Position numbers and translations under genes: made by a program
Source: Bdellovibrionales bacterium
GTDB taxonomy: Bacteria > Bdellovibrionota > Bdellovibrionia > Bdellovibrionales > UBA1609
Direction of reading: 5' to 3'
Length of the DNA: 50,864 nucleotides
Assembly (NCBI GenBank): GCA_031412575.1
Contig: JANODG010000088.1
Coordinates: forward strand, 1-50,864
The notes under the pieces: generated by a model
Seen by the model: the letters and a program-made list of their open reading frames with translations, nothing else
What the model was told of the DNA's origin: nothing
Database searches by the model: none
Shown: piece after piece, positions 4,299 through 48,165 of the stretch
How the letters are laid out: every line of letters starts with the position of its first letter
Position numbering within the stretch: the stretch's first letter is position 1

Positions 4299-4778
4299 TT
4301 AACCTAAATCGGCCTGGCACATTTTTGAACTTTGGAGAACAGCATCCATATTTTTTACGATCTGTTCTGTGCTTAACTCGCGGCTTGAAACAACATTGCT
4401 GTAGTTTGATTTCATAAGGTCGGCAAACTCCGTGGCACTCTTGCAATTATAAATGTGAGCTAATACAGAAACAGTTTCCCCTTGCCCTAAAGCAAGCTCG
4501 TTGACTACAGCATTTTTGTTAGCCGCGATGAAAACTTTAGCGCGATCTGATTTTAACGCCAATTTGTTTGCGTCACAGTTTAATGAACCAAAAGTGATTC
4601 CAAAAGTTTGGTTAAAAAACAAAGCGTTTGTTGTTGCGGCCATACCTTGCTCAAACCACTGATTTTTGCCTTCAAAAATAATCGAGCCTATTCCACATCC
4701 TGCGGCACCGTAGCCTGCGGCAAAAGTTTTTATTCCAAAGCATAACATGAGTGTTAAAGCTGCTATTATTTTCATTGC
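4299..4778 (-). CDS. DUF3015-like small secreted protein
   Basis: Start moved to MKIIAALTL..., which has an AGGAGA RBS 7 nt upstream. Signal peptide present. The AAGYGAAGCGIGS motif resembles DUF3015 proteins. Confidence 0.55.
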   Translation of the reverse strand, partial: AMKIIAALTLMLCFGIKTFAAGYGAAGCGIGSIIFEGKNQWFEQGMAATTNALFFNQTFGITFGSLNCDANKLALKSDRAKVFIAANKNAVVNELALGQGETVSVLAHIYNCKSATEFADLMKSNYSNVVSSRELSTEQIVKNMDAVLQSSKMCQADLG

Positions 4779-5667: not shown

Positions 5668-6723
5668 TTAAATAAGATTTTCCGGCGGTTTTGGCAGATG
5701 ACTTTCGGAAATAAAAAACGTCGAAAGTTTAAAAAAGTCAGAAAAAACTTTATGTTTTTCTGCCGCACTTTTTAAGTATTCCGAACCCGAAGAGCCTCCA
5801 GTTCCTACCTTTTGCCCGATCATACGACTAACCATCTGCGCATGTCGGTAGCGCCAAATGGTCCATTTTTCGTCAATGTCCATAAGGTTCATGATCAGCT
5901 CAAAAGCTGGGTAAAGCTTAGGGCTTGACCTGTAAACCTGAATAAATAGTGCCGCCATTAAAGCTTTATATGAAAGTTTCCAAACATTTTCCTGCTTGTA
6001 AGCGTTGTAAGTGTTTTCATCGGTGATCATTTTAAAGTTTAAACGTTCTTGTTCTAGTTTTTTAAGCGAGCTTTCCAAATTTGTTGGATTTAGTACATGC
6101 TTTTTTATCGATGCAATTTCTTGATCAAACATGTGGTCGACAGCCAATTTATATTCAAGCCAAAATTCATATTTATCCGCTTGTAAGTAGGGAGTTCGCT
6201 CTAACCAACGTTCAACACATGAAAACAAGTTCGGAGATTTTTCTGAGGTTAAAACTTTTTCGGTGTCCGTTTGATCCAAGAATTGATGATAAGGGCAGCC
6301 GCCCATAATGGCGCGCTCTTTAGGCATAAGACCCATTTTATTTTCCATCAAGCGAAACTGAGCGCTTTGAAAACCTGAAGCTGAAAATAAGTAATTTCGG
6401 AATTCTAAAAAACCTAGGGGTGTCATCGTTTCTAAAACATCAATTTGCGAAATTAATAGCCTTTGGATTTCGATCACTCTTTTTAGTCTGTGGTTGATGG
6501 TTTGGATTTCAGAATCAGAAACGAAATCTTTATTAAATAAATTAATGATGGAATCGATTTCCCACAAGATCTGTTTAAACCAAAGTTCATAGGCTTGATG
6601 AACAATGATAAAAAGCATTTCGTCGTGTGCCGTTTTGTTTATTTTAGTGCTTACTAAATCCTGTAAATTTGTAAGTTCATTCACTTTTAAATAATTGGTG
6701 TAATTCAAGCTTTCGTTATTCAT
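5668..6723 (-). CDS. kynA: tryptophan 2,3-dioxygenase
   Basis: 351 aa. The N-terminal YTNYLKVNELTNLQ...HDEMLFIIVHQAYELWFKQ is the canonical TDO signature. AAGGAAA RBS upstream. Confidence 0.9.
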   Translation of the reverse strand: MNNESLNYTNYLKVNELTNLQDLVSTKINKTAHDEMLFIIVHQAYELWFKQILWEIDSIINLFNKDFVSDSEIQTINHRLKRVIEIQRLLISQIDVLETMTPLGFLEFRNYLFSASGFQSAQFRLMENKMGLMPKERAIMGGCPYHQFLDQTDTEKVLTSEKSPNLFSCVERWLERTPYLQADKYEFWLEYKLAVDHMFDQEIASIKKHVLNPTNLESSLKKLEQERLNFKMITDENTYNAYKQENVWKLSYKALMAALFIQVYRSSPKLYPAFELIMNLMDIDEKWTIWRYRHAQMVSRMIGQKVGTGGSSGSEYLKSAAEKHKVFSDFFKLSTFFISESHLPKPPENLI

Positions 6724-6943
6724 AGTTTTCCTTTTTAATAAAAGGCAATTTTAATAGCGCCAGTGTCTTCGTACAAGCTGAGGTAAGGCTTGGTCAAAGC
6801 AGCGCATATTTAATGCACTGTTCAAGCTCTTGGTTTTGAATAAAAAGCCAAGAGGTTTAAACTTCCAAATATATTGGACAATGTCCTGAGCTGAGCTATA
6901 TTAGTGCCTCGATAACACATAACACTACGATGCTGGGAATCTT

Positions 6944-8532: not shown

Positions 8533-9489
8533 TTAGATGGCCTTTAAGTTTTTATTCTGTTCTTTTGTGTTAATAAATCTGTAAGCAATTAAAGCGGCAA
8601 GTTTAGAAGTAACGTCATCAAAGTCAAGTGTTGGTGATACTTCATAAATGCCTAAACTGCGAATGTAATAATTTTCAATAAAATAATTCATCATTAAAAA
8701 AAAGAACTCAGGATTTAATCCCGTTGCAAAAGACTGACTGCAGCCCGGGGCATAGGCATTCGAAAAGGCATCAATGTCGACACTTAGAAAACAAGTGGTG
8801 TCTTCGATATTAAAAGATTTCACTAAAGTTTCAAACTTTGCAAAATCAAATTGTCCTAAAGTTAAAAGGTCGTTTAAAAAAATAACATGTCCACCTTTAG
8901 ACTTGATGTACTCATAATGGGCTTTTGTATTGCACTGTTCTTGAATTCCTATTTCTATAAAATCAAAAACGTCTTCTTCTAGAAGTCTATAAAATGGCGT
9001 CCCGCTTGTAATTCCAAAGTCTAAATTTCTGACATCAAAGTGGGCATCAAAATTTACAATTAAAGGTTTTTTTGTGCTGTCAGAGCAAAAAGTTAAAAAT
9101 GATTTTCCGTCCACGTATCCGTAATCGTGTCCACCGCCGAAGCTGATTAAGGTTTTTCCTTGGTCTAAAATACGTTCTATAAAAGTTGTTGCAGTTTTAT
9201 GTCTTGAGGCTAAATCTTTTTCAATTTTTAGATTTCCGTAATCGTAAAGTTTTGGATTTTGAAAATCATGAAACAGTGAAGGTCGCATTTTGTAAAAAAA
9301 TTTTCGAATACTATTCGGCGCAAGACTTGCACCCACTCTTCCACCGTTGTTTTTAATGCCCTCATCATCAGGATGACCTATGACCACATATTGACTGTCG
9401 TCGATATCGTCGGTTAGCCAATCAAACACCCTTGGATCTTTTTTCGGATCAGTGCCGACGATTTTTTGTAAATCTACTTTTTCAAACAT
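8533..9489 (-). CDS. arginase-family ureohydrolase (formimidoylglutamase/agmatinase-like)
   Basis: 318 aa with arginase-fold Mn motifs GGGHD, NFDAHFD and SVDIDAF. A 2-nt gap separates it from the next gene. Confidence 0.75.
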   Translation of the reverse strand: MFEKVDLQKIVGTDPKKDPRVFDWLTDDIDDSQYVVIGHPDDEGIKNNGGRVGASLAPNSIRKFFYKMRPSLFHDFQNPKLYDYGNLKIEKDLASRHKTATTFIERILDQGKTLISFGGGHDYGYVDGKSFLTFCSDSTKKPLIVNFDAHFDVRNLDFGITSGTPFYRLLEEDVFDFIEIGIQEQCNTKAHYEYIKSKGGHVIFLNDLLTLGQFDFAKFETLVKSFNIEDTTCFLSVDIDAFSNAYAPGCSQSFATGLNPEFFFLMMNYFIENYYIRSLGIYEVSPTLDFDDVTSKLAALIAYRFINTKEQNKNLKAI

Positions 9490-16648: not shown

Positions 16649-17635
16649 TTGAAAAAGAAAGAAACTTTAATTTTAAATCGCCCAAGGCGTTTAAGAAAAA
16701 ACCAAACTGTAAGATCTTCGGTAGCAGAAACGCATTTAACAGCGGCAAATTTAGTGCAGCCACTTTTTGTGTCGACAAAAACCGAAAGTATTTTATCAAT
16801 GCCGGGTCAGTCTCGTTTAAGCTTAAAAGATTTTGAAAATAAAATTGTAAGCCTAAAGGATTCTGGCTTGTTTGGCGTGGCTTTGTTTTCTCATGTTGAA
16901 GATAAATTTAAAGACCCAGAAGCTTCTATGGCCTTAAAAGACAATCTATACTTTGAAGCTATCGACTGTGTAAAAAGACTTGCGCCGAAACTTCAAGTGA
17001 TCACTGATGTGGCCCTAGACCCTTACTCTTCTGACGGTCACGACGGGTTGGTATCAAAGAATGGCGAGATTTTAAACGATGAAACTTGTGAAATTTTAGC
17101 AGAAATGGCTTTAATCCACGCAAAGATGGGAGCGGATTTTATTGCCCCTTCAGACATGATGGACGGGCGTGTTTTTGAAATTCGCCAGGCCTTAGAAAAG
17201 AATGATTACAAGAACGTCGGGATTATCAGTTACACCGCGAAATACGCATCAAGTTATTATGGTCCATTTCGTGATGCTTTAGATTCTGCCCCAAAATGGG
17301 GGAACAAAAAGACTTATCAAATGGACTTTGCAAATTCTGACGAGTCTATACGTGAGGCTTTGTTGGATAGCGAAGAGGGTGCGGATTATTTGATGGTTAA
17401 ACCAGCAGGACCCTACTTAGATATTATTTATAGATTAAAAAGTTTAAACCTGGCACCGATCGCCGCGTATCAAGTCAGCGGGGAGTATTCTAGTCTAGTG
17501 GCTGCATTTGAAAAAGATTGGTTGCCACGCCCAAAAGTCATTCACGAGTCCTTGCTGGGGATTCGTCGAGCCGGAGCAAGTTTGATATTTACATACTTTG
17601 CCGAGGAATGGGCTCTTAGAAAAATCTTAACTTGA
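16649..17635 (+). CDS. hemB: porphobilinogen synthase (ALA dehydratase)
   Basis: 328 aa with a TTG start and AGGTGA RBS. It has the N-terminal RPRRLRKN motif, the Schiff-base lysine region YLMVKPAGPYLDI, and IAAYQVSGEY. Confidence 0.93.
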   Translation: MKKKETLILNRPRRLRKNQTVRSSVAETHLTAANLVQPLFVSTKTESILSMPGQSRLSLKDFENKIVSLKDSGLFGVALFSHVEDKFKDPEASMALKDNLYFEAIDCVKRLAPKLQVITDVALDPYSSDGHDGLVSKNGEILNDETCEILAEMALIHAKMGADFIAPSDMMDGRVFEIRQALEKNDYKNVGIISYTAKYASSYYGPFRDALDSAPKWGNKKTYQMDFANSDESIREALLDSEEGADYLMVKPAGPYLDIIYRLKSLNLAPIAAYQVSGEYSSLVAAFEKDWLPRPKVIHESLLGIRRAGASLIFTYFAEEWALRKILT

Positions 17636-21843: not shown

Positions 21844-22742
21844 ATGGTGTCATAAGTGTCTCTAATTTAAAGAATAAAAAAGCAGTGTTGGCGCTGCTCT
21901 GGTTTGTATTTACGACTGCGCTTGGAACTTGGTGGGTTTACTTTAGTTACTTACAGTACTCATCCTTAAGTCAAACCCAGTGGGAAAATTCCAGTCAAAC
22001 TTTAAGCTATCAAAAAATGCTCGTCCAAGAAGGGCTTGTGTTTTTGATTTTGGTGATTATTGGTGGTGGGGCCTTGATTTATTATTTTTTAAAAGAAACT
22101 AAACTTTTAAAAGAACGTGAATCTTTTTTTGCGGCTTTCACTCACGATTTAAAAACGACGATCGCAACCCATAGATTGTCCTTAGAAAAAATCATTCAAG
22201 TGAATCGTTCAATCACACCCAGCGAATATAAAAAAATGTTTTCAGAAAGTCAGGCCTTGGGTTTAAAGCTAGAAAATGCACTGCTTTTATCTCAGGAAGA
22301 CAGGGCCTTTGGTGTGTTTTCAGTGTTTAAATTTTCGGAAGTGATATCTTCAGTGAAACGCATGTGGCCCGAGCTTGAAGTCAGCTTGACTAAAGATGTA
22401 TCAGTTCGCGCGGATAAAGTGTTTTTAACAAGTGTGATGATGAATCTATTTCAGAATGCGATTCAACATGCCCAAGCTACGGAAATTCAAATTGAAGTTT
22501 CGGATTCAAAAAACAGCAAGAATAAAACATCAATAGAAATAAAAACTAATGGTGTGAAGTTTGAAGGGGACGTGACCAAACTTGGAGGTAGTCATTATTA
22601 CCGCGGTCAGTATCGTGGATCCGGCCTTGGATTGTACATTTCAAAAATCCTGATTCAAAAGATGAATGGCAATTTATTTTTTCATCATCAACAAGGCCCT
22701 TTAACAGCTGTCCTTGAACTTGAAAAAGCTGGGGTTAATTAA
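21840..22742 (+). CDS. sensor histidine kinase (two TM helices, no obvious sensory domain)
   Basis: ATGA start/stop overlap with hemL. H-box FTHDLKTTIAT, N-box MMNLFQNAIQH and G-box GSGLGLYISK. Confidence 0.85.
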   Translation: MNGVISVSNLKNKKAVLALLWFVFTTALGTWWVYFSYLQYSSLSQTQWENSSQTLSYQKMLVQEGLVFLILVIIGGGALIYYFLKETKLLKERESFFAAFTHDLKTTIATHRLSLEKIIQVNRSITPSEYKKMFSESQALGLKLENALLLSQEDRAFGVFSVFKFSEVISSVKRMWPELEVSLTKDVSVRADKVFLTSVMMNLFQNAIQHAQATEIQIEVSDSKNSKNKTSIEIKTNGVKFEGDVTKLGGSHYYRGQYRGSGLGLYISKILIQKMNGNLFFHHQQGPLTAVLELEKAGVN

Positions 22743-22744
22743 AG

Positions 22745-23416
22745 ATGAAAAAGTCGCCTCATGTTTTTTTACTTGAAGATAACAAAGAGCTTGGACTTTC
22801 TTTACAAGATAAGTTTACAGACTCCGGGTACACATCAAGTTGGTTCACTCATGTTGGCCAAGCAAAAACGTATCAAAATTTTCAAGACATTGATTTATTT
22901 ATATTGGATGTGGGTTTGCCCGATGGAACAGGTTTTGAATTTGCAGAGTGGTTAAAATCTCAAAAGGTAAAACAACCCATTATGTTTTTAACAGCGATGG
23001 GGCAGCCCGAAGATCGCTTAAAGGGTTATGAGCTTGGTGCAGAGGAATATATTCCAAAGCCGTTTTTATATAAAGAATTAGAAATGCGTATTAATCATGT
23101 GTTAGAAAATCACGCCAAGAATTTAATTTTCGAATTTAAAGATTTAGTGATTGATTTTGAATCCATGACTTTTAAATGGAGTAATGGCGAAATTATTTTT
23201 CCACAGTCTAAAGATCTTTTAATTTTAAAACTTTTAATTCAGAAATCGCCACAAGTTATTTCTCGGGACGAGATCTTAAATGAAGTGTGGGGAATGGATG
23301 ATTTTCCTACGGAAAGAACTGTGGATAATAGCATTGTGAGGTTGAGGCAGAGTTTGAAGGAGCATCAAGGGTGTTTGAAGTCGGTGCGTGGGATGGGGTA
23401 TCAATGGCTGGTTTGA
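22745..23416 (+). CDS. OmpR-family response regulator
   Basis: Receiver domain with LFILDVGLPDG and a winged-helix C-terminus (...VRLRQSL...VRGMGYQW). A 2-nt gap follows the kinase gene. Confidence 0.9.
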   Translation: MKKSPHVFLLEDNKELGLSLQDKFTDSGYTSSWFTHVGQAKTYQNFQDIDLFILDVGLPDGTGFEFAEWLKSQKVKQPIMFLTAMGQPEDRLKGYELGAEEYIPKPFLYKELEMRINHVLENHAKNLIFEFKDLVIDFESMTFKWSNGEIIFPQSKDLLILKLLIQKSPQVISRDEILNEVWGMDDFPTERTVDNSIVRLRQSLKEHQGCLKSVRGMGYQWLV

Positions 23417-23581
23417 TTTTTTGGTATCTTATTTTAATGAAAGTTTAATCTTCTTAAATTCCGACACGCCCATCCATGGGCTCTGCGCGAGCCGCCTGCG
23501 GCGGGCGCATCCTGCTCTCGCGAGGTCGGAATTTAAGAAGATTAAACTTTCATTAAAATAAGATTCCAAAAAATCAAACCA
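23409..23581. repeat. 173-bp near-perfect palindrome: 57-bp AT-rich arms (one mismatch) around a 59-bp GC-rich core
   Basis: Arm 23409-23465 is the reverse complement of 23525-23581, apart from T/A at one position. The core 23466-23524 contains CCGCC-TGC-GGCGG. On the minus strand this is the same GCCCGC-NGCA-GGCGG hairpin seen in the repeat family below. The left arm covers the last codons and stop of the response regulator. Confidence 0.9.
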
Positions 23582-23810
23582 AACGTGTGTATGGTTTATA
23601 CTTAGGATTTATTTTTTTATTAATTGTGTAGGTGAGTAGGATTTTAAAATAAGTAACTAAATATGTAAGTAAGTAAGTTAGTAAAAATTTAATTAATTGT
23701 TTAAAAATTTATTGGTTTTTTTTATTTATTAAAAAGATATTTTTTTAAAATTATTTGAAAATTTAAGGATATTAAAGCCTTGTTTTTGTGTGTTTAAGAA
23801 GGGAAGTCAG

Positions 23811-24830
23811 ATGAATTTGAAGTTTCAGGGTGCGTTGAGGAATGAGGTGCAGAAGTGTCCGCCGATTTGGTTTATGAGGCAGGCAGGAAGATATCATGGG
23901 CATTATCAGAATTTGAGATCGAAGCATTCCTTTATGGATTTGTGTAAGGTGCCGGAGTTGGCTTGCGAAGTGGCTTTGGGTCCTATTATGGATTTTGATT
24001 TTGATGTTTCTATTTTGTTTTCGGATTTACTTTTTCCGCTAGAAGCTATGGGTATGGGGCTTGATTATAAGCCAGGTCCTGTATTGGGATGGCATTTAAA
24101 TGCTTCGAACATACATAAATTAAAATCTGTTGAAGATTCTTTGGCTGGTGTTCAATTTCAAAAAGAGGCCGTCGTGTTAACTCGAAGAGCTTTACCTAAA
24201 GATAAAAGTCTTGTGGGTTTTGTCGGAGGGCCTTGGACTTTATTTAGTTATGCGGTCGAAGGAAGTCATAAAGATGGTTTAAAACAAACTAAAAAGTCTT
24301 TGGCCTTATTTAATCCTTTTTGTGAAAAATTACTTCCGCTTTTGATTGAAAACATCAAACTGCAATTAGCGGGTGGGGTTGAAGTGGTTATGATGTTTGA
24401 TACGTCTGTGGGTGAAATTAGCCCCTATATTTTTAAAGCTTACATTGAACCTGTGCTTTTAGGTTTAGCTCAAAAGTTTCCAGGTAAGTTAGGGTATTAC
24501 TCTAAAGGCACGACTGAGGCGCATTATTCGGTAGAACTAAAAAATGCGCCATGGGCTGGATTTGGATTTGATCACCGGTGGGATTTACCGAAGTGGTTAA
24601 AGACTGAAAAAAAGAAAGGTTTTGTTCAGGGTAATTTTGATCAGTTGTTTTTATTTCAAGATTTTTCTGACTTTAAAAAAACTTTGGACCAATATTTAAA
24701 AACTTACCAAGATATTTCTGTAGAGGCCCGTGCCGGATGGGTGTGTGCTTTAGGGCACGGTGTCCTTCCTGAAACTCCAGAAAAAAACGTTAAATACTTT
24801 GTCGAGCGCGTTAGAGAGGTGCTTTCATGA
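23811..24830 (+). CDS. hemE: uroporphyrinogen decarboxylase
   Basis: PPIWFMRQAGRY signature. The start is set at the ATG at 23811 (GGGAAG RBS). The ORF is open from the GTG at 23790. Confidence 0.92.
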   Translation: MNLKFQGALRNEVQKCPPIWFMRQAGRYHGHYQNLRSKHSFMDLCKVPELACEVALGPIMDFDFDVSILFSDLLFPLEAMGMGLDYKPGPVLGWHLNASNIHKLKSVEDSLAGVQFQKEAVVLTRRALPKDKSLVGFVGGPWTLFSYAVEGSHKDGLKQTKKSLALFNPFCEKLLPLLIENIKLQLAGGVEVVMMFDTSVGEISPYIFKAYIEPVLLGLAQKFPGKLGYYSKGTTEAHYSVELKNAPWAGFGFDHRWDLPKWLKTEKKKGFVQGNFDQLFLFQDFSDFKKTLDQYLKTYQDISVEARAGWVCALGHGVLPETPEKNVKYFVERVREVLS

Positions 24831-26170
24831 TTGATCTATTAAGTAAGTACGATGTTCCCGTACCACGTTACACTAGCTATCCTACAGTGCCTTACTGGCA
24901 AGATAACCCGACATCCAAAGAATGGCTTTCTTCCTTAGAAAAACATTTTTCTAAAGACGATGCCACTTGGTCTATGTACTTACACATTCCTTTTTGTGAA
25001 ACCTTATGTACCTTTTGTGGCTGTAACACCATCATTACAAAAGATCATAAACGTGAACATCCTTACGTAACTCACTTGTTATCGGAATGGAAAATCTATT
25101 TAGATAAAATGCCGTATATTAAAGATAAAGAATTAAAAGAGATCCACTTAGGTGGAGGAACTCCAACTTTTTTAAGTTCTGAAAATTTAGTTTTTTTGAT
25201 GACCAATCTTTTTAAAGATATTAAAAAATCCAAAGACTTTGAAGCTTCCATCGAAGTGGACCCAAGACGCACAACTTCTGATCAGCTTAAGGCCCTATAT
25301 GACATTGGGTTTCGCAGGGTCAGTATGGGTGTACAGGATTTTGATCCTGAAGTGCAACGCCTAGTAAACCGTATACAGCCAGAAAGTATGACTTTGAATT
25401 TAACCCAAAGAGCTAGGGCCATGGGTTACACTTCCGTCAATTATGATTTGATTTACGGTTTACCAAAACAAACCAAAGCAAGTATAAAGACACTTGCTGA
25501 AAAAACCTTAGAACATAAACCAGACCGCATAGCTTTATATTCTTTTGCCTTAGTGCCATGGATTAAACCTACGCATAGGCTTTACAAAGATGAAGATTTG
25601 CCAATGGGTTTAGAAAAGCGTGAGCTTTATGAAATCGCACGAACCATTTTACTTAAAGGTGGTTACAAAGAAATCGGAATGGATCACTTTGCATTGCCAA
25701 CGGATTCTTTATCGAAAGCTTTGCAAAGTAAAAAACTTCACAGAAATTTTATGGGTTACACTCATCACAGATCAGATATATTGTTGGGTTTAGGGGTAAG
25801 TTCGATTTCTGAAACTCCAGATTGTTTTCACCAAAATGAAAAAAAATATCAGATCTATCAAAGATTTATCGAGCAAGAACAAATTCCAACTCTTCGTGGG
25901 CATAAACTTTCTGATCAAGACCGAAAACGACGAGAACAGATTTTAAAACTCATGACCACTTGGGAAACTGTTTTAGATGATTTTAAACATGAAGAAGAAG
26001 TGAAAGTGTTTTTAAATGAACTGATTCAAGATGGTTTAGCTAAAGTCGAAAATCAAAAAATTATGGTGACAGAAAAAGGTCAGCCGTTTTTAAGAAACAT
26101 ATGCATGTCTTTAGATGAACGCTTGCGCTTAAATAAGCCAACTCAACAGGTGTTTTCAAAAGCGCTATGA
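24827..26170 (+). CDS. hemN: oxygen-independent coproporphyrinogen III oxidase (radical SAM)
   Basis: ATGA overlap with hemE. It has the HemN-specific PRYTSYPTVPYW motif and the radical-SAM motif CETLCTFCGC. Confidence 0.92.
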   Translation: MIDLLSKYDVPVPRYTSYPTVPYWQDNPTSKEWLSSLEKHFSKDDATWSMYLHIPFCETLCTFCGCNTIITKDHKREHPYVTHLLSEWKIYLDKMPYIKDKELKEIHLGGGTPTFLSSENLVFLMTNLFKDIKKSKDFEASIEVDPRRTTSDQLKALYDIGFRRVSMGVQDFDPEVQRLVNRIQPESMTLNLTQRARAMGYTSVNYDLIYGLPKQTKASIKTLAEKTLEHKPDRIALYSFALVPWIKPTHRLYKDEDLPMGLEKRELYEIARTILLKGGYKEIGMDHFALPTDSLSKALQSKKLHRNFMGYTHHRSDILLGLGVSSISETPDCFHQNEKKYQIYQRFIEQEQIPTLRGHKLSDQDRKRREQILKLMTTWETVLDDFKHEEEVKVFLNELIQDGLAKVENQKIMVTEKGQPFLRNICMSLDERLRLNKPTQQVFSKAL

Positions 26171-27372
26171 AGAAAGTCGCCATCATCGGATTTGGATTTT
26201 CTGGACTGTCTGCAGCTTGGGCTTTTGCAAGGCGCGGGCATGATGTGGAAGTTTTTGAAAAAGTATCAAAAATTGGTGGAATACTTCAAACTGAAAACTC
26301 TGAGTTTGGGATTATAGAAACCGCCGCCAATGCTATTTTACGCTCGGAAAACGTAAGCGTGATGGCTAAGGACTTCGATATCACCTGGGCTGAGCGAAAG
26401 AAATCTGCTAAAGCTAAATGGGTATTCACAGATAAACCAAGACGCTGGCCACTGACTACGATTGAGACTTTAAAGTTCATAAACCCGATGTTTAAATTAG
26501 CTCTGGGATCTGAAAGTATAAAACCAAAAAGTTTAGAGTCCGTCGCTAATTGGGGACAAAGGGTTTTTAAATCTCCAGTGTTTGTCGATCATCTTTTGGG
26601 TCCTGCACTTCAAGGAGTTTATGCAAATTCATCTGATCATCTTTCAGCCTCTTTATGTTTAAACACTTTTTTTGCCACCCAAAAAATAAGACATGAAGGA
26701 TCACACGCACCAAAAAAAGGAATGTCAGACTTTTTTAATTCTGGATTAAAATTTTTAACGAAACATAATAATTTTAAATTAAATCTAAATTCTCAAATCA
26801 CAAATTATGAAAATTTAGATGCAGACATCATTTTAGACACGCGCCCAGACCCTATAAACGTAAATTATTTAAGTGTTTATTCACTAACATTATTTTTCAG
26901 AACAGAAGACCGCCCGAAGTTTCAAGGGTTCGGTTGCTTGTTTGCGAAATCTAAAAGCGTACTAGGAGTCTTATTCAACTCCGACATCTTCGAAGACCGC
27001 ACTAAAGAAGACCTTTTTAGTGAGACCTGGATTATCACGCCCGCTGCAGGCGGAAAAGTTCCAGCGAAGAGCGCAGGGCGTGCGCAGCCGCCCGAAGAGC
27101 GCTCGAGTGAACTAGACATGATCAAACACACCCTCGCTTTTCGCGAACAAGCCTTCGGCATAAAATCCGAACCTGTATTCTCGAAGCTCACTCATTGGCC
27201 ACAAGGTATTCCCAACTACAGCCTTCAACATGAGACTTTCTTACAGGATAAATTTAAATTTGAAACTTCGATGGGACAGACTAAGATATTCAAAATCGGA
27301 AACTACACGGGGCAAATTGGTCTCAATAAAATGTTAGAAGAAAATGTAAAATTAGCTCGTAAATTCAGCTGA
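26167..27372 (+). CDS. hemY: FAD-dependent protoporphyrinogen oxidase carrying an in-frame repeat-element insertion
   Basis: ATGA overlap with hemN. It has the dinucleotide-binding N-terminus KVAIIGFGFSGLSAAW...EVFEK and sits between hemN and hemH. Residues ~292-318 (AAGGKVPAKSAGRAQPPEERSSELD) are encoded by the GC-rich repeat. Confidence 0.72.
   Translation: MKKVAIIGFGFSGLSAAWAFARRGHDVEVFEKVSKIGGILQTENSEFGIIETAANAILRSENVSVMAKDFDITWAERKKSAKAKWVFTDKPRRWPLTTIETLKFINPMFKLALGSESIKPKSLESVANWGQRVFKSPVFVDHLLGPALQGVYANSSDHLSASLCLNTFFATQKIRHEGSHAPKKGMSDFFNSGLKFLTKHNNFKLNLNSQITNYENLDADIILDTRPDPINVNYLSVYSLTLFFRTEDRPKFQGFGCLFAKSKSVLGVLFNSDIFEDRTKEDLFSETWIITPAAGGKVPAKSAGRAQPPEERSSELDMIKHTLAFREQAFGIKSEPVFSKLTHWPQGIPNYSLQHETFLQDKFKFETSMGQTKIFKIGNYTGQIGLNKMLEENVKLARKFS
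27039..27118 (+). repeat. GC-rich multi-hairpin repeat, copy A (intragenic, in-frame in hemY)
   Basis: GCCCGCTGCAGGCGGAAAAGTTCCAGCGAA-GAGCGC-A-GGGCGTGCGCAGCCGCCC-GAA-GAGCGCTC-GAGTGAACTAGACA. It shares both terminal boxes and the central hairpin with copies B-F. Confidence 0.9.
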
Positions 27373-27465: not shown

Positions 27466-28470
27466 ATGAAAAAAAAAGCAGTCATATTTTTAAATATTGG
27501 TTCACCTTCAACCACTGAAGTTAAAGATGTTAAAAAATATTTAAATCGATTTTTAATGGATCCTTATGTGATCAATCTTCCATCTTTTTTAAGATGGTTA
27601 TTTGTTACAAAACTTATCGTTCCAAGACGTGCTCCGAAATCGGCTGAAGCTTATAAAAAGGTTTGGACTAAAGATGGCTCTCCATTGGTGTCGATCACAA
27701 AGCGCCTGATGGAAAACTTAAATTTAATAGATACAGAACATGAATGGTTTTCAGCGATGAGATATTCTGAGCCTGAAGTGTTAGACGTGCTCGCTGAAAT
27801 AAAAAACAAAGGTTATGACAGCCTTGTTGTTTTCCCGGCCTATCCCCAGTACGCGGCTTCATCAACGGAATCCATTGTTCAGTATGTAAATGAAAAGTTA
27901 AAGGTTATGGGATGGAAACCTAACCTTTATCAAATTCAAGATTTTTATTTAGAGCCAGAGTTTATTGATAACATTGCTCTTGAAATTCCAAAAAATATAA
28001 ACCCTAAAGAATTTGATCATGTTCTTTTCTCATTTCACGGCCTTCCCGAAAGTCATCTTAAGAAAGTCAGCTCCACATGTCAGTTTTCAACGTGCTGTGA
28101 TCAAATCACCGAAGTGAATAAAAAATGTTACCGCGCCCAATGTTATCAAACGGCAAAAGCAGTGGCAGAAAAACTTGGTCTAGAAAAACGCAAGTGGACT
28201 ATGTCTTTTCAAAGTCGACTGGGTCCTGTCAAATGGATTGAACCTTATACCGATGTGGTTTCTGTCGAACAAGCAAAACAAAAAAATAGTCTTTTGGTGT
28301 TTTCACTGGCTTTTGTCACAGATTGTTTAGAGACTTTAGAAGAGTTAGACATTGGTTTAAGAGAAGATTTTTTCGAGCACGGTGGCGAAAAATTTGAACG
28401 TGTTCCTTGTTTAAATGAAAAATTTTATTCCGCTGTTGGAGTAGCGAAAAAAGCCATAAAACTAATATAA
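27466..28470 (+). CDS. hemH: ferrochelatase
   Basis: 334 aa with the N-terminal VIFLNIGSP, FSFHGLPE and a C-terminal ...DCLETLEELD segment, all typical of HemH. Confidence 0.92.
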   Translation: MKKKAVIFLNIGSPSTTEVKDVKKYLNRFLMDPYVINLPSFLRWLFVTKLIVPRRAPKSAEAYKKVWTKDGSPLVSITKRLMENLNLIDTEHEWFSAMRYSEPEVLDVLAEIKNKGYDSLVVFPAYPQYAASSTESIVQYVNEKLKVMGWKPNLYQIQDFYLEPEFIDNIALEIPKNINPKEFDHVLFSFHGLPESHLKKVSSTCQFSTCCDQITEVNKKCYRAQCYQTAKAVAEKLGLEKRKWTMSFQSRLGPVKWIEPYTDVVSVEQAKQKNSLLVFSLAFVTDCLETLEELDIGLREDFFEHGGEKFERVPCLNEKFYSAVGVAKKAIKLI

Positions 28471-33874: not shown

Positions 33875-34804
33875 ATGAACGACATTAAAATTCAAAGAAA
33901 TTTGAAGGGGACAATTAAGGGGTTAGTTGTTTTGTTGTTAACATTAAATTTTAGTTTTATAGCAAATGCAGGACTGGTGTGTCCAAATTCAATACTCCGT
34001 GATTCTGCTTACGGTATGAGTAATTCACAATTAGTTCGTTTCAAGTCCAACCTTACAGAAAACAGAAACCGCGGTGTTACAAGAAGCGAAAAAGTGACCC
34101 GTGTTAAGGAAGCTGTCGAACATAGGAACGGAAATCTAGGATTTCCTGTTGGACACGATTCTCAGTCAGTTGCTGAAGCTGCAGTTTGGGCTGCAGGTTG
34201 TACAGGAAATGATTTCAGTGTTTTTGCTGCGATACTTAGTGTTGAATCTGGATATTGCGGAGACCTAAGAGGTGGTGGAGCAGACTCTGGATGTTCACAG
34301 TTATCTGTAAGAAAAGGAGCATCAGTTCACGAACTAAAAAGTCAGTTAAACTTAAAAGGCGGCGACGGTAAAGCAAACCCTGACGTGACCCAAGCGGCAA
34401 AAGACATGGTGATGACGTGTTTAAATAATGATAAATCCCAGTATGATGCTTTTATGACTTTTTATAATCGTCCGTTCGAAGAAATCAAAACCGATTTAAG
34501 AAGTGGCCAAAATGTTTACTTCGATGTGCTTATGGGCGCGCTCTACTTAAAATTTGTGACTGCCTTAGCTGGTGGATACATTGTTCCAGGGGATTCTCCG
34601 GGTGGGATCGCAAGATACAACGGCGGTGGAGTTCCAAATTACCTAGGCAAAGTTCAAGGACTTAACCAAGGAGAAGGTCGCTTAGAACAAATTTCAGGTA
34701 CATGTTATGAAGACAAATTTACACCTAACGTACTAGGCGAAGCCTGCGGAACTATGGGACTTAAAGGAGAACTGTGCAACAGCGTAAGTGGGATAGAGAT
34801 ATAG
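33875..34804 (+). CDS. secreted lytic-transglycosylase-like (SLT/lysozyme-like) protein
   Basis: 309 aa with a signal peptide. AILSVESGY (catalytic Glu-Ser), GCSQLS and ARYNGGG resemble the SLT motifs ES / GLMQ / AYNxG. The TAG stop abuts repeat copy B. Confidence 0.5.
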   Translation: MNDIKIQRNLKGTIKGLVVLLLTLNFSFIANAGLVCPNSILRDSAYGMSNSQLVRFKSNLTENRNRGVTRSEKVTRVKEAVEHRNGNLGFPVGHDSQSVAEAAVWAAGCTGNDFSVFAAILSVESGYCGDLRGGGADSGCSQLSVRKGASVHELKSQLNLKGGDGKANPDVTQAAKDMVMTCLNNDKSQYDAFMTFYNRPFEEIKTDLRSGQNVYFDVLMGALYLKFVTALAGGYIVPGDSPGGIARYNGGGVPNYLGKVQGLNQGEGRLEQISGTCYEDKFTPNVLGEACGTMGLKGELCNSVSGIEI

Positions 34805-34955
34805 CGCCCCACGCAGTGGGAAAAGTTCCGCCCGCTGCAGGCGGAAAAGTTCCAGCGAGCACTTGGGGGCCACTGCATGCATCGCTGTACAGCTCTCGCA
34901 TGTGGCCGTCGTGCGAAGCCGCCCAAAAGTGTGCGAGTGAACTAGACAGCGCAAC
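34805..34955 (+). repeat. GC-rich multi-hairpin repeat, copy B (long form with extra internal hairpin)
   Basis: Two [stem-GCA-stem]-GAAAAGTTCC boxes (CCCAC-GCA-GTGGG and CCGC-TGCAG-GCGG), then AGCGAG, the outer stem CACTT/AAGTG, an extra GGCCAC...GTGGCC hairpin, and GAGTGAACTAGACAGCGCAAC. Confidence 0.9.
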
Positions 34956-35877
34956 AAAAACAACTAACTATAATCTTAAAAAGATTATAGTTAGTTGTTT
35001 TTATTCACTCATCCTTCTCCTCAACCTCACATCCTGCAGCAAAGACCACACTTACATCAACGCCCCAAACCCAGACCCAAACTCTAGCTACCAAACCGGC
35101 CCCACATGGAATCGCGAAAAATTAATCCTAACCACAAATCTACCATTTCAAATTTTAAACATGAACCGTGCTTATAAGGGTGACGTGGGCGTCGGCGTTT
35201 ACTTAGGGGAATTTAAGGGAAAACACATTGGCATGACGGCGGCCCACCTTTACCCAGATCTGACATCTTGCAAAGACGAAGTTTCTTTCTTAATTCAAGA
35301 TCAAGAACAATTTCATTACTACCCTTGCGACGGGTGGAGTTTCACACTTAAAGATAACGACATTATGTTTTTTGAAATCAGCATTCAATCCGCAGACATA
35401 AACTTATTGTCCCCAGTGAACGTATCAAAAAATCCCACATCAATTAATCAGCAGCTGAAACTTATAACCTTTGAACGAAATTTCGAAGATCAGACAGTTG
35501 AACTTTATTCCGATTCAAGCACCGAATGTAAAACATTAAGCAATGAAGCTAAGCAGATCGCCGATCCTGATATCAGCGACGACCGTATGATCACCTCGTG
35601 GTCAATGGCCATGGGCTGTGATTCGAGGCACGGGGATTCGGGTGCCCCTGTTTACAATGAAGTCCAGCAATTAGTAGGTCTTCTTTGGACGGGTAAATAT
35701 CCTAAAAATCAATCCAGCCAAAGTTTTAGTTCTTTAACTGAAACTCAACTGTGGGAAGACTATAATTATTTTGTTCCCGTTGAAAAAATCAAAGAAGAAC
35801 TTGGGAAATTAATGGTTAGCTCTCAAGTGAAAACTTCCGACCAAAATACTTTATCCCAAATCTTTAACTCTTTTTAA
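34900..35877 (+). CDS. trypsin-like (S1) serine peptidase, probable lipoprotein; start uncertain
   Basis: The triad contexts are MTAAHLY (His), DNDIMFF (Asp) and GDSGAPVY (Ser), with a lipobox-like LLLNLTSC. The only in-frame ATG/GTG upstream of the signal peptide (34774, 34816, 34900) lie inside repeat copy B. Confidence 0.65.
   Translation: MWPSCEAAQKCASELDSATKTTNYNLKKIIVSCFYSLILLLNLTSCSKDHTYINAPNPDPNSSYQTGPTWNREKLILTTNLPFQILNMNRAYKGDVGVGVYLGEFKGKHIGMTAAHLYPDLTSCKDEVSFLIQDQEQFHYYPCDGWSFTLKDNDIMFFEISIQSADINLLSPVNVSKNPTSINQQLKLITFERNFEDQTVELYSDSSTECKTLSNEAKQIADPDISDDRMITSWSMAMGCDSRHGDSGAPVYNEVQQLVGLLWTGKYPKNQSSQSFSSLTETQLWEDYNYFVPVEKIKEELGKLMVSSQVKTSDQNTLSQIFNSF
34956..35007. terminator. very strong hairpin: perfect 22-bp stem, 3-nt loop, A5/T5 flanks (bidirectional terminator-like)
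   Basis: AAAAACAACTAACTATAATCTT (34956-34977) is the exact reverse complement of 34981-35002. The right arm also encodes KKIIVSCF of the downstream ORF. Confidence 0.75.
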
Positions 35878-40484: not shown

Positions 40485-40599
40485 GCCCGCAGAAGGAAAA
40501 GTTCCGCCCGCGGCAGGCGGAAAAGTTCCAGCGAGTTGGCCTTAAGGGCGTGCGAAGCCGCCCTAAAGGAAGGCCAACGAGTGAACTAGACAGCGCAAC
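40485..40599 (+). repeat. GC-rich multi-hairpin repeat, copy C (archetypal)
   Basis: GCCCGCAGAAGGAAAAGTTCC-GCCCGCGGCAGGCGGAAAAGTTCC-AGCGAG-TTGGCCTT-AA-GGGCGTGCGAAGCCGCCC-TAAAGG-AAGGCCAA-C-GAGTGAACTAGACAGCGCAAC. It begins 1 nt after the TAA stop of the upstream gene. Confidence 0.92.
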
Positions 40600-43625: not shown

Positions 43626-43741
43626 CCCCACGCAGTAGGAAAAGTTCCGCTCCGCGCAGCGGGAAAAGTTCCAGCGAAGTGCGCAGGGCGTGCGCAGCCG
43701 CCCGAAAAGCGCACGAGTGAACTAGACATCGCCCCCGCGCA
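43625..43741 (+). repeat. GC-rich multi-hairpin repeat, copy D
   Basis: CCCCAC-GCA-GTAGG-AAAAGTTCC, CCGC-GCA-GCGG-GAAAAGTTCC, AGCGAA, the outer stem GTGCGC/GCGCAC around GGGCGTGCGCAGCCGCCC, then GAGTGAACTAGACA. Confidence 0.92.
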
Positions 43742-43747
43742 CAAAGC

Positions 43748-43781
43748 AAAAAAAAGACACCTATCCAGGTGTCTTTTTTTT
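43748..43781 (+). terminator. intrinsic terminator (A8-GACACCT-ATCC-AGGTGTC-T8)
   Basis: Perfect 7-bp GC-containing stem with a 4-nt loop and a T8 tail. It lies immediately after repeat copy D. Confidence 0.8.
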
Positions 43782-43973
43782 GTTATCATTTAAACTTTCA
43801 AAACCTTAGACCTGATAATTCATTACAAATTTATAGGGTGAAGCTCTTATGAGACATTACGTTTCAGCTAAGTTATTACTTTACCGTCCGCTCTGTCATA
43901 TTTTCAATGCAACTTTCCTTACAGATTTAATGAATATACACTTTTCTTATTTAAACTTTTAGGAGGTAATTTT

Positions 43974-44512: not shown

Positions 44513-44545
44513 AAAAAAAAAGACACCCTTACAGGTGCCTTTTTT
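44513..44545. terminator. bidirectional intrinsic terminator (A9-GACACC...GGTGCC-T6), a paralogue of the one at 43748
   Basis: The 7-bp stem is fully paired on the minus strand (one G-U pair) and serves rpsD. It has one mismatch on the plus strand. Confidence 0.7.
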
Positions 44546-47980: not shown

Positions 47981-48080
47981 GAAAAGTTCCAGCGAGCACT
48001 TGGGCGTGCGTACGGAAGTCCCAGCGAAGCGGACTGAACGGTAGCCGCCCGAAAAGCGCACGAGTGAACTAGACAGCGCC
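47981..48080 (+). repeat. GC-rich repeat, copy E (chimeric, with a nested 33-nt hairpin in the central loop)
   Basis: GAAAAGTTCCAGCGAG-CACTTGGGCGTGCG-[TACGGAAGTCCCAGCGAAGCGGACTGAACGGTA]-GCCGCCCGAAAAGCGCAC-GAGTGAACTAGACAGCGCC. The 5' half resembles copy B. The 3' half is identical to copy D. Confidence 0.85.
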
Positions 48081-48165
48081 GTCCGCAGGACGAAAAGTTC
48101 CAGCGAGGACTGGCAAGGGCGTGCGAAGCCGCCCGAGAAAGCCAATCCGAGTGAACTAGACAGCA
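48081..48165 (+). repeat. GC-rich repeat, copy F (tandem to E)
   Basis: GTCC-GCA-GGAC-GAAAAGTTCC-AGCGAG-GACTGGC-AA-GGGCGTGCGAAGCCGCCC-GAGAAA-GCCAATC-C-GAGTGAACTAGACAGC. Confidence 0.9.

Follow-up and report, generated by a model that had tools for sequence, protein, structure and literature searches.

Several families of small palindromic insertions are known in bacteria. The Correia elements of Neisseria (CREE, or NEMIS) have conserved terminal repeats of ~26 bp, duplicate a TA target and occur by the hundred. The ERIC (IRU) sequences of enterobacteria and the YPAL sequences of Yersinia, ~127–170 bp in length, form a hairpin nearly from end to end, lie in intergenic DNA that is transcribed and affect the processing or stability of mRNA; each is a family of many copies whose consensus is conserved and whose stems are imperfect. 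The Rickettsia palindromic elements (RPE) are small, multi-copy and recognizable by a family consensus, and are tolerated inside or at the end of coding sequences. CREE can give rise to promoters at their ends, and they can be bound by RNase III, with cleavage or a block of the enzyme as the outcome (PMC2649163). Here we describe a 173-nt palindrome in the heme biosynthesis locus of a Bdellovibrionales bacterium, located between the gene of a response regulator (RR) and hemE. The window that we analyzed is a whole metagenomic contig, JANODG010000088.1, of 50,864 nt.

The palindrome is genuine, and comparison with related loci points to an insertion confined to one lineage, with a palindrome of like build probably gained independently at the same junction of a second lineage. 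Where the second lineage has two such palindromes, their cores are related and their arms are not. We tentatively favor a hairpin-forming insertion whose long, locus-specific arms were made, or are kept perfect, in place by fold-back copying, as a possibility that falls short of probable. The evidence for this explanation and for its rivals is given below.

Structure and Authenticity of the Palindrome

The element consists of an AT-rich left arm of 57 nt (23409–23465), a GC-rich, hairpin-rich core of 59 nt (23466–23524) and a right arm (23525–23581) that is the reverse complement of the left arm except at T23565. Repeat finding gave 56 of 57 complementary positions (98%) over a total element of 173 nt, with T23425 opposite T23565 as the sole mismatch. 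This is by far the longest inverted repeat of the window, and the closely spaced repeats that come next measure 25 nt (96%) and 29 nt (76%). The predicted RNA fold of 23400–23590 has an energy of −107.9 kcal/mol, against −42.9 ± 4.5 kcal/mol for shuffled sequences (z = −14.5), and none of 200 shuffles was as good. Folded as DNA, the core (23466–23524) reaches −21.9 kcal/mol (z = −2.5), and it contains the sub-hairpins GCCCAT-CC-ATGGGC, CCGCC-TGC-GGCGG and CGCGAG...CTCGCG. The element is flanked as ...ATGGC|TGG...CCA|AACGT..., and the outer ends of its arms read TGGTTTGAT...ATCAAACCA. The left arm includes the final two codons of RR (CTG GTT) and its stop codon, TGA at 23414–23416. A palindrome of this kind is far beyond chance.

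Most of this had been proposed in an earlier, sequence-only reading of the same DNA. Its arm coordinates and single mismatch were reproduced by repeat finding, and the stop codon that it placed in the left arm is there. The hairpin-rich nature that it ascribed to the GC-rich core is supported by the sub-hairpins and the DNA fold. It had further claimed that the core shares a module, in inverse orientation, with a GC-rich repeat family of the window (15 of 16 positions agree over 16 nt), that the element lies between two blocks of heme genes (as the Pfam gene order confirms), and that it is followed by an extremely AT-rich spacer with a GTAA run, which is described below.

An assembly artifact, namely a chimeric fold-back join made by the assembler or in the library, is most improbable. 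The arm length of 57 is near common assembler k values and the window comes from a metagenomic contig, both of which would fit such a join. As an independent check we used the Logan re-assemblies of public sequencing runs, for which we assume a k value of 31. A contig from run SRR20217183 (L062) encodes the hemE of the window exactly and begins at window position 23535, that is, at 23565 minus 30, so that the outer 47 nt of the right arm are recovered joined to the hemE flank. A break 30 nt inside the mismatch is what results when a k = 31 graph becomes ambiguous, where the k-mers of the inner arm also occur in the sample as their reverse complement. This break point is the signature of a true inverted repeat and makes an artifact very unlikely. 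A second assembler has in this way reproduced the link between right arm and hemE; in addition, the gene order is collinear across both sides of the palindrome, and an analogous palindrome is present in a 986-kb contig of a relative (L003, see below).

The RR-hemE Junction in Related Genomes

The RR-hemE junction was gathered from ~30 related loci. The nearest genomes are metagenome-assembled Bdellovibrionales/Pseudobdellovibrionaceae, on which ground an origin in Leptospira, as the gene order might suggest, is rejected. Percentages given with loci are the identity of their RR to that of the window. The two genes are ~12 nt apart in L001 (81%), 22 nt in L018 (84%), 24 nt in L019-24 (79%) and 27 nt in L028/29 (76%). 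The gap is 70 nt in L002 (78%), 85 nt in L032 (81%) and 96 nt in L030 (78%), in each case without a long inverted repeat, and ~30–40 nt in the distant L009 and L011 (44–46%). The gap in the window measures 395 nt. Nine palindrome-free versions of the junction were found in the clade, with RR and hemE 12–96 nt apart or with the sequence ending in another repeat. The short gaps of the relatives indicate that a tight junction is ancestral and that the 395-nt gap of the window is a lineage-specific gain. The insertion between RR and hemE is specific to this lineage, and the interrupted palindrome makes up its first 173 nt.

This comparison agrees with the earlier proposal that the palindrome splits the heme locus, since the relatives show a tight operon junction at this place. 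The same reading had named as grounds for its own refutation an arm that is unique and conserved in relatives as an ordinary long terminator. That description does not fit, because conservation of the element stops at the closest subclade and a U-tract is missing. An intrinsic terminator was also looked for and rejected: the region 22700–24000 contains no terminator-like site, and the right arm is followed by AACGTGTG, which is not a U-tract.

At one of the related loci, L031 (79%), a different GC-rich repeat (4531–4609) directly follows the RR codons W-L-Y-N and extends the RR open reading frame (ORF) to 231 aa. The L031 contig ends inside that repeat, and an identical 20-mer at both contig ends (the other end being 1–20) indicates that the repeat is multi-copy.

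In the three closest relatives (RR 91–93%, from three samples), the RR-side contigs end 53, 53 and 33 nt past the RR stop codon, and their terminal 30-mers are locus-specific and mutually dissimilar. The hemE-side contigs (L025, L026 and L027, positions 1–30) open in (AGTTTT)n with at least five units. As the RR-side contigs stop early and the hemE-side contigs start in a microsatellite, the junction of the closest relative is not reconstructable. The contig breaks fit the behavior of self-complementary repeats at this site in a k = 31 assembly and are suggestive of palindromes, and strain-level variation is compatible with them as well. If the breaks do mark palindromes, the arms would vary among lineages yet remain complementary within each genome, which would be concerted evolution.

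Two Palindromes in a Second Lineage

The locus L003 (RR 72%) belongs to a 986-kb contig, CAWDNU010000004.1 of bin MFD03250.bin.2.22, of which 12.7 kb was searchable; the contig name presumably points to a long-read project. It has one palindrome at the RR-hemE junction (arms 6655–6718 and 6825–6889, ~64 nt with one indel; core 106 nt) and another between hemN and hemY (~9268–9472, more degenerate; arms ~58 nt; core 88 nt). Together with the palindrome of the window, these are the only long, closely spaced inverted repeats in the window and the ~30 related loci. In the L003 palindrome at the RR-hemE junction, the left arm opens with the conserved Leu codon that follows W221 and takes in the stop codon of RR (TTA TTT TAG), and the right arm ends at the hemE ribosome-binding site. 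Thus the conserved Leu codon and the RR stop codon lie inside the outer ends of both RR-side palindromes, that of the window and that of L003.

The two L003 cores have a 20-nt exact match across the arm/core boundary and agree at 23 of the first 26 core positions. Both end in ...TGTCTGAG, their termini being CGAGTTCTTTGGCATG...TGTCTGAG (also given as AAAACGAGTTCTTTGGCATG...TGTCTGAG.TTTT). The L003 arms, on the other hand, are unrelated to each other and to the arms of the window; similarity among the arms of the three palindromes was considered and found to be not significant. A search of IMG/VR with the L003 core terminus returned 28 matches, all of them chance and none with flanking inverted repeats.

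The L003 cores face opposite ways, with respect both to one another and to the operon. This would suit an invertible switch, in which the 57-bp repeats let the 59-bp core flip and so alter the expression of hemE to hemH, and the inverted repeats do flank a short segment upstream of one half of the operon. A switch of this kind is hardly credible here. Neither a recombinase nor an invertase was found in the 50.9 kb of the window, the core consists of 59 nt of GC-rich hairpins in which no promoter-like hexamers or promoter-like site were found, and known invertible segments are longer and bear promoters.

A neighbor-joining tree was calculated from five proteins (hemL, histidine kinase, RR, hemE and hemN). 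The palindrome-free L018, L001, L019/L032, L031 and L002 fall between the window clade and L003, with bootstrap values of 64–69% for the intermediate branches and 100% for the clade of the window and P0002. With this order of branches, two gains at the RR-hemE junction are more parsimonious than one gain followed by at least three losses, and the L003 palindrome at this junction was probably gained independently.

The hemN and hemY genes overlap by ATGA in the window (26167–26170), L025 and L011. Insertions between these genes were observed in L001 (9031–9187, tandem units of the GC-rich family described below), L030 (3687–3788, one unit) and L003 (9260–9548, the palindrome). The same interval of L019 (9062–9174) has 111 nt of AT-rich sequence.

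The Core and the GC-Rich Repeat Family

A unit of the GC-rich family opens with GAAAAGTTCCAGCGA and closes with GAGTGAACTAGACA; between these lie, in order, the variable stem strand X, in some units a hairpin GGGCGTGCGNAGCCGCCC, and X', with X and X' covarying between copies. Copies are located in the window at 27053–27118, 34844–34948, 40520–40592, 43663–43728, 47981–48075 and 48092–48162, and in relatives at L001 9046–9140, L002 3198–3265, L030 3689–3753 and L025 3390–3438. A regular-expression scan found 10 distinct units, six in the window and four in L001, L002 and L030; none lies in the palindrome. One or two small stem-GCA-stem modules often stand ahead of a unit, and units sometimes follow one another in tandem, as in L001, which has at least two full units and the start of a third. 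When the 5' modules are included, elements of the window begin 0–2 nt past the stop codons at 34804, 40483 and 43625. Across species that are ~20–25% diverged in protein sequence the family is conserved, and it has no match in Rfam or IMG/VR. No copy has long inverted arms alongside.

Positions 27–42 of the core contain a 16-nt hairpin module on the minus strand (23492–23507, CCGCCTGCGGCGGGCG) that matches the 5' module of the family, CGCCCGCNGCAGGCGG, at 15 of 16 positions in inverse orientation (copies at 27038, 34829 and 40505). The family termini GAAAAGTTCCAGCGA...GAGTGAACTAGACA find no counterpart in the core, which falls outside the family and has only the 16-nt module in common with it. 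The GC-rich family and other GC-rich repeats repeatedly sit at gene ends and junctions of the operon in this clade, and the operon junctions are hotspots of insertion.

A family copy is present in frame in hemY (27038–27123), where it adds 18 residues (PAAGGKVPAKSAGRAQPP) that are absent in four orthologues. The hemY of the closest relative bears a family copy at the same place (L025 3390–3438). Directly after another family copy there is an AT-rich hairpin (34953–35005) whose 25-bp stem is perfect and whose loop has 3 nt. Two similar 16-bp hairpins (43747–43782 and 44514–44545), 732 nt apart, have A-tract and T-tract flanks of the bidirectional-terminator type.

Perfect AT-rich hairpins that lack a core (the 25-bp stem at 34953–35005 and the 16-bp stem at 43747–43782) are what would be needed if a long AT-rich hairpin, for example a long terminator, had stood here first and had received the GC-rich core in its loop, much as REP hairpin loops serve as targets of some insertion sequences. 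This would also account for the related cores and unrelated arms of L003. We consider it quite unlikely, however, as the relatives show no hairpin between RR and hemE, and two rare events at one site would be required three times over. Moreover, a hairpin of 57 bp closed by a short loop would not be stable, given what is known of SbcCD and palindromes.

Comparison with Mobile Elements and Other Candidates

The sequence-only reading had called the element similar to a MITE, or miniature inverted-repeat transposable element. This is correct as far as shape and size are concerned, for the element has 57-bp arms, a length of 173 bp and only chance ORFs of at most 57 aa. No direct target-site duplication is present at the window palindrome or at either L003 palindrome. 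No second copy of the arm was found in the window, the ~30 related loci, the PLSDB plasmids or IMG/VR, and when arm, core and spacer were compared by BLAST with the window and the related loci, just chance matches of 11–16 nt resulted. No window ORF of at least 120 aa has a Pfam match to a transposase or recombinase (50.9 kb). The likeness is weakened further by the palindromes of like build in L003, with their related cores and unrelated arms.

A classical MITE or foldback element of the ERIC, YPAL or Correia classes, that is, a multi-copy element with preformed 57-bp terminal repeats that landed at the end of RR and supplied a new stop codon, is a serious rival, though a rather unlikely origin. 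Its build (long terminal repeats, short core, no convincing coding potential) is suitable, and like the other small repeats of the clade it sits at a gene junction within a transcription unit. The contigs of the close relatives break just past RR, as they would at repeats. Further, only ~1–2% of the genome was searched, assuming a genome of a few Mb, and a missing second copy is expected for a moderate family. On the other side stand the missing target-site duplication at all three palindromes, the single arm copy in the window and related loci and the missing transposase in the window. L003 presents the reverse of a MITE, whose terminal repeats are conserved, and where the contigs of the relatives break, the final 30-mers do not resemble one another.

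Several other candidates were considered and rejected. An attC site does not fit, because the outer ends TGGTTTGAT...ATCAAACCA have the wrong order and consensus relative to R'' (RYYYAAC) and R' (GTTRRRY), the stem is near-perfect where that of attC is imperfect and has extrahelical bases, and there is no integron context. Rfam gave no match at gathering thresholds; below threshold, just generic models of long-hairpin plant miRNAs were hit, on both strands. A small protein encoded in the core was dismissed, as the ORFs are short and unconvincing, and concatenated ORF translations of the window and L003 elements found nothing among 5.8 billion proteins, in a test of low power. A 16-nt match of the arm to the histidine kinase genes of relatives is an A-rich coding coincidence, and the kinase gene of the window itself differs at that site. 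An inverted triplication, in which the arm would resemble the downstream spacer, was not significant. Kinship of the arms to the RR-hemE spacers of relatives was likewise not significant against the natural AT-rich background, the best case being the left arm against the L016 tail (p ~0.04).

The Heme Locus and the AT-Rich Spacer

RR is an OmpR-family response regulator encoded on the plus strand at 22745–23416 (ORF list; Pfam Response_reg and Trans_reg_C). The match to its DNA-binding domain ends at residue 220 of 223, so that the domain is left intact by the insertion. The block upstream of the palindrome, as identified by Pfam, contains hemB (starting at 16649), hemA (17786), hemC/D (18784), hemL (20533) and a histidine kinase (21840) in addition to RR. 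The downstream block consists of hemE, uroporphyrinogen decarboxylase (23811–24830, plus strand; Pfam and homologues), hemN (starting at 24827), hemY (ORF 26167–27372) and hemH (starting at 27466). The start of hemE is likely the ATG at 23811, which would give 339 aa as in its homologues. Elsewhere in the window, an AhpC/TSA peroxiredoxin ORF (786–1574) has a Lys-rich N-terminal extension of ~115 aa, made of repeats with a 12-nt period (AAAAAAGTAACA-like).

The AT-rich spacer before hemE (23582–23810, plus strand) is ~230 nt long and is absent from relatives outside the closest subclade. The part from 23600 to 23799 has 16.5% GC, in a window of 36.8% GC. The run in the spacer is (GTAA)3-GTTA-GTAA at 23665–23684, and two TTAATTAATTGT-like boxes are found 73 nt apart, at 23616–23627 and 23689–23700. 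As an RR-binding box, TTAATTAATTGT was rejected; its two occurrences in the spacer, the only ones in the window, do not exceed what chance would give. The GTAA run, the TTAATTAATTGT-like boxes and the (AGTTTT)n of the relatives may belong to a new control region of hemE, as simple-sequence or as operator features. A separate promoter for hemE presumably lies in the spacer.

Origin and Possible Effect of the Insertion

According to the explanation that we tentatively favor, a small hairpin-forming core would be the unit that arrives or recurs, and the core of the window would be a GC-rich module from the same pool as the repeat family at gene ends of the clade. The arms would be produced at the site itself, where sequence next to the core is copied around it in a fold-back (snap-back or template-switch) manner, and the same copying would then keep them nearly perfect; they would not be the fixed terminal repeats of a transposon. 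Hairpin-primed copying has been described to create or perfect inverted repeats around a hairpin center (PMC5941160; PMC7467729). Template switching has been proposed to perfect bacterial inverted repeats, and concerted evolution was attributed to it (PMC5941160).

Several features of the data support this. The arms match the AT-rich local composition and the core is compositionally foreign. Native RR codons lie within the arms. The L003 pair combines the same core termini with different arms. The window and ~30 related loci contain no other copy of the arm, and the core has a module of the GC-rich family. Finally, if the contig breaks of the closest relatives are taken as palindromes, their arms vary among sister lineages and are perfect in each one.

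The following points weigh against it. No relative shows an "empty" site with one arm only. Homology of the arm to the spacer of any relative was not demonstrable (best p ~0.04). Because the ancestral junction was tight, too short to furnish the arm, ~49 non-coding bases of the left arm must be new. The three arms, at 57, 58 and 64 nt, vary less in length than random template-switch distances would predict. The searchable sequence amounts to ~51 kb of the window's own genome and 12.7 kb of that of L003, in which a dispersed family could be missed. As for the proposed effect, no U-tract follows the stem, and a promoter scan did not call a sigma-70-like site on the plus strand of the spacer.

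There is a further possibility, which we judge unlikely. Small hairpin-forming cores in Pseudobdellovibrionaceae could create a ~60-bp inverted duplication of the flank of the insertion site, or seed such palindromes, and the long hairpins that result could have been recruited repeatedly to segment the heme operon. The two probably independent gains between RR and hemE and the one between hemN and hemY would then carry the signature of an "inverted target-site duplication"; to our knowledge, such a duplication is not known for bacterial mobile elements.

Concerning the effect, the 12–27 nt gaps between RR and hemE in relatives imply that the operon is read through there. In the lineage of the window, a read-through transcript would form a hairpin of ~−108 kcal/mol that starts inside the last RR codons, with the 57-bp duplex beginning 5 nt before the RR stop codon. 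Terminating ribosomes must then melt its base, since it starts within the last codons. Liang, Rudd and Deutscher are said to have found in 2015 that REP hairpins within ~15 nt of a stop codon reduce expression in E. coli. The hairpin may act as a barrier, as a processing site for a double-strand-specific RNase, or as a protector of the 3' end against 3' exonucleases. The predicted 57-bp duplex, with one U-U mismatch, has the length of an RNase III substrate, for which about two helical turns of uninterrupted double-stranded RNA are the least required, provided that the operon is read through. As DNA, the palindrome should be tolerable owing to the 59-nt spacer between its arms, and would still be cruciform-prone. 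Both the RNase III and the cruciform readings, which the sequence-only reading had offered, would be physically plausible. The net effect would be to uncouple hemE-hemN-hemY-hemH from hemA...RR, and the downstream heme genes would then rely on signals in the AT-rich stretch of 230 nt gained ahead of hemE.

Should the arms be made in place around an inserted hairpin core, long palindromes would have a new way of arising in bacterial chromosomes, and there would be a new insertion signature, which repeat finders built on conserved terminal repeats would miss. Functionally, the locus would show an operon re-wired by a structural insertion, in which a gap of 12–27 nt was replaced with a hairpin of ~−108 kcal/mol and a 230-nt spacer. 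The recurrence in a second lineage at the RR-hemE junction suggests selection or a hotspot.

Comparison with Known Systems

The Correia elements are the closest functional precedent, their promoters and RNase III binding being effects of the sort that is proposed for the palindrome. They too are small (~100–155 bp), non-coding inverted-repeat elements with a core that sit at gene junctions and are co-transcribed. In contrast to them, the palindrome has arms of 57 bp that are unique in the available sequence, has no target duplication and has no sequence in common with CREE. It differs from ERIC and YPAL in its stem, which is perfect at 56 of 57 positions, AT-rich, single-copy so far and built around a compositionally foreign GC-rich core. 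With REP and BIME it shares a core of GC-rich hairpins just past a stop codon, and the GC-rich family of the window also abuts stop codons; unlike that family, the core is without the GAAAAGTTCCAGCGA...GAGTGAACTAGACA termini.

Quasi-palindrome correction and fold-back duplication would give locus-specific, near-perfect arms, as observed in the window. The bacterial template-switch cases that have been described, however, concern short inverted repeats or very large duplications (PMC5941160; PMC7467729). The likeness to RPE lies in the arm, which supplies the last RR codons and the stop codon, and in the family copy that is in frame in hemY, although the window palindrome lacks the multi-copy family consensus of RPE. 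We know of no description of ~60-bp arms built around an inserted core and recurring at operon junctions. In summary, the element is akin to the small palindromic insertions of other bacteria, and what is distinctive about it is the combination of related cores with unrelated ~60-bp arms, recurring at the junctions of one operon.

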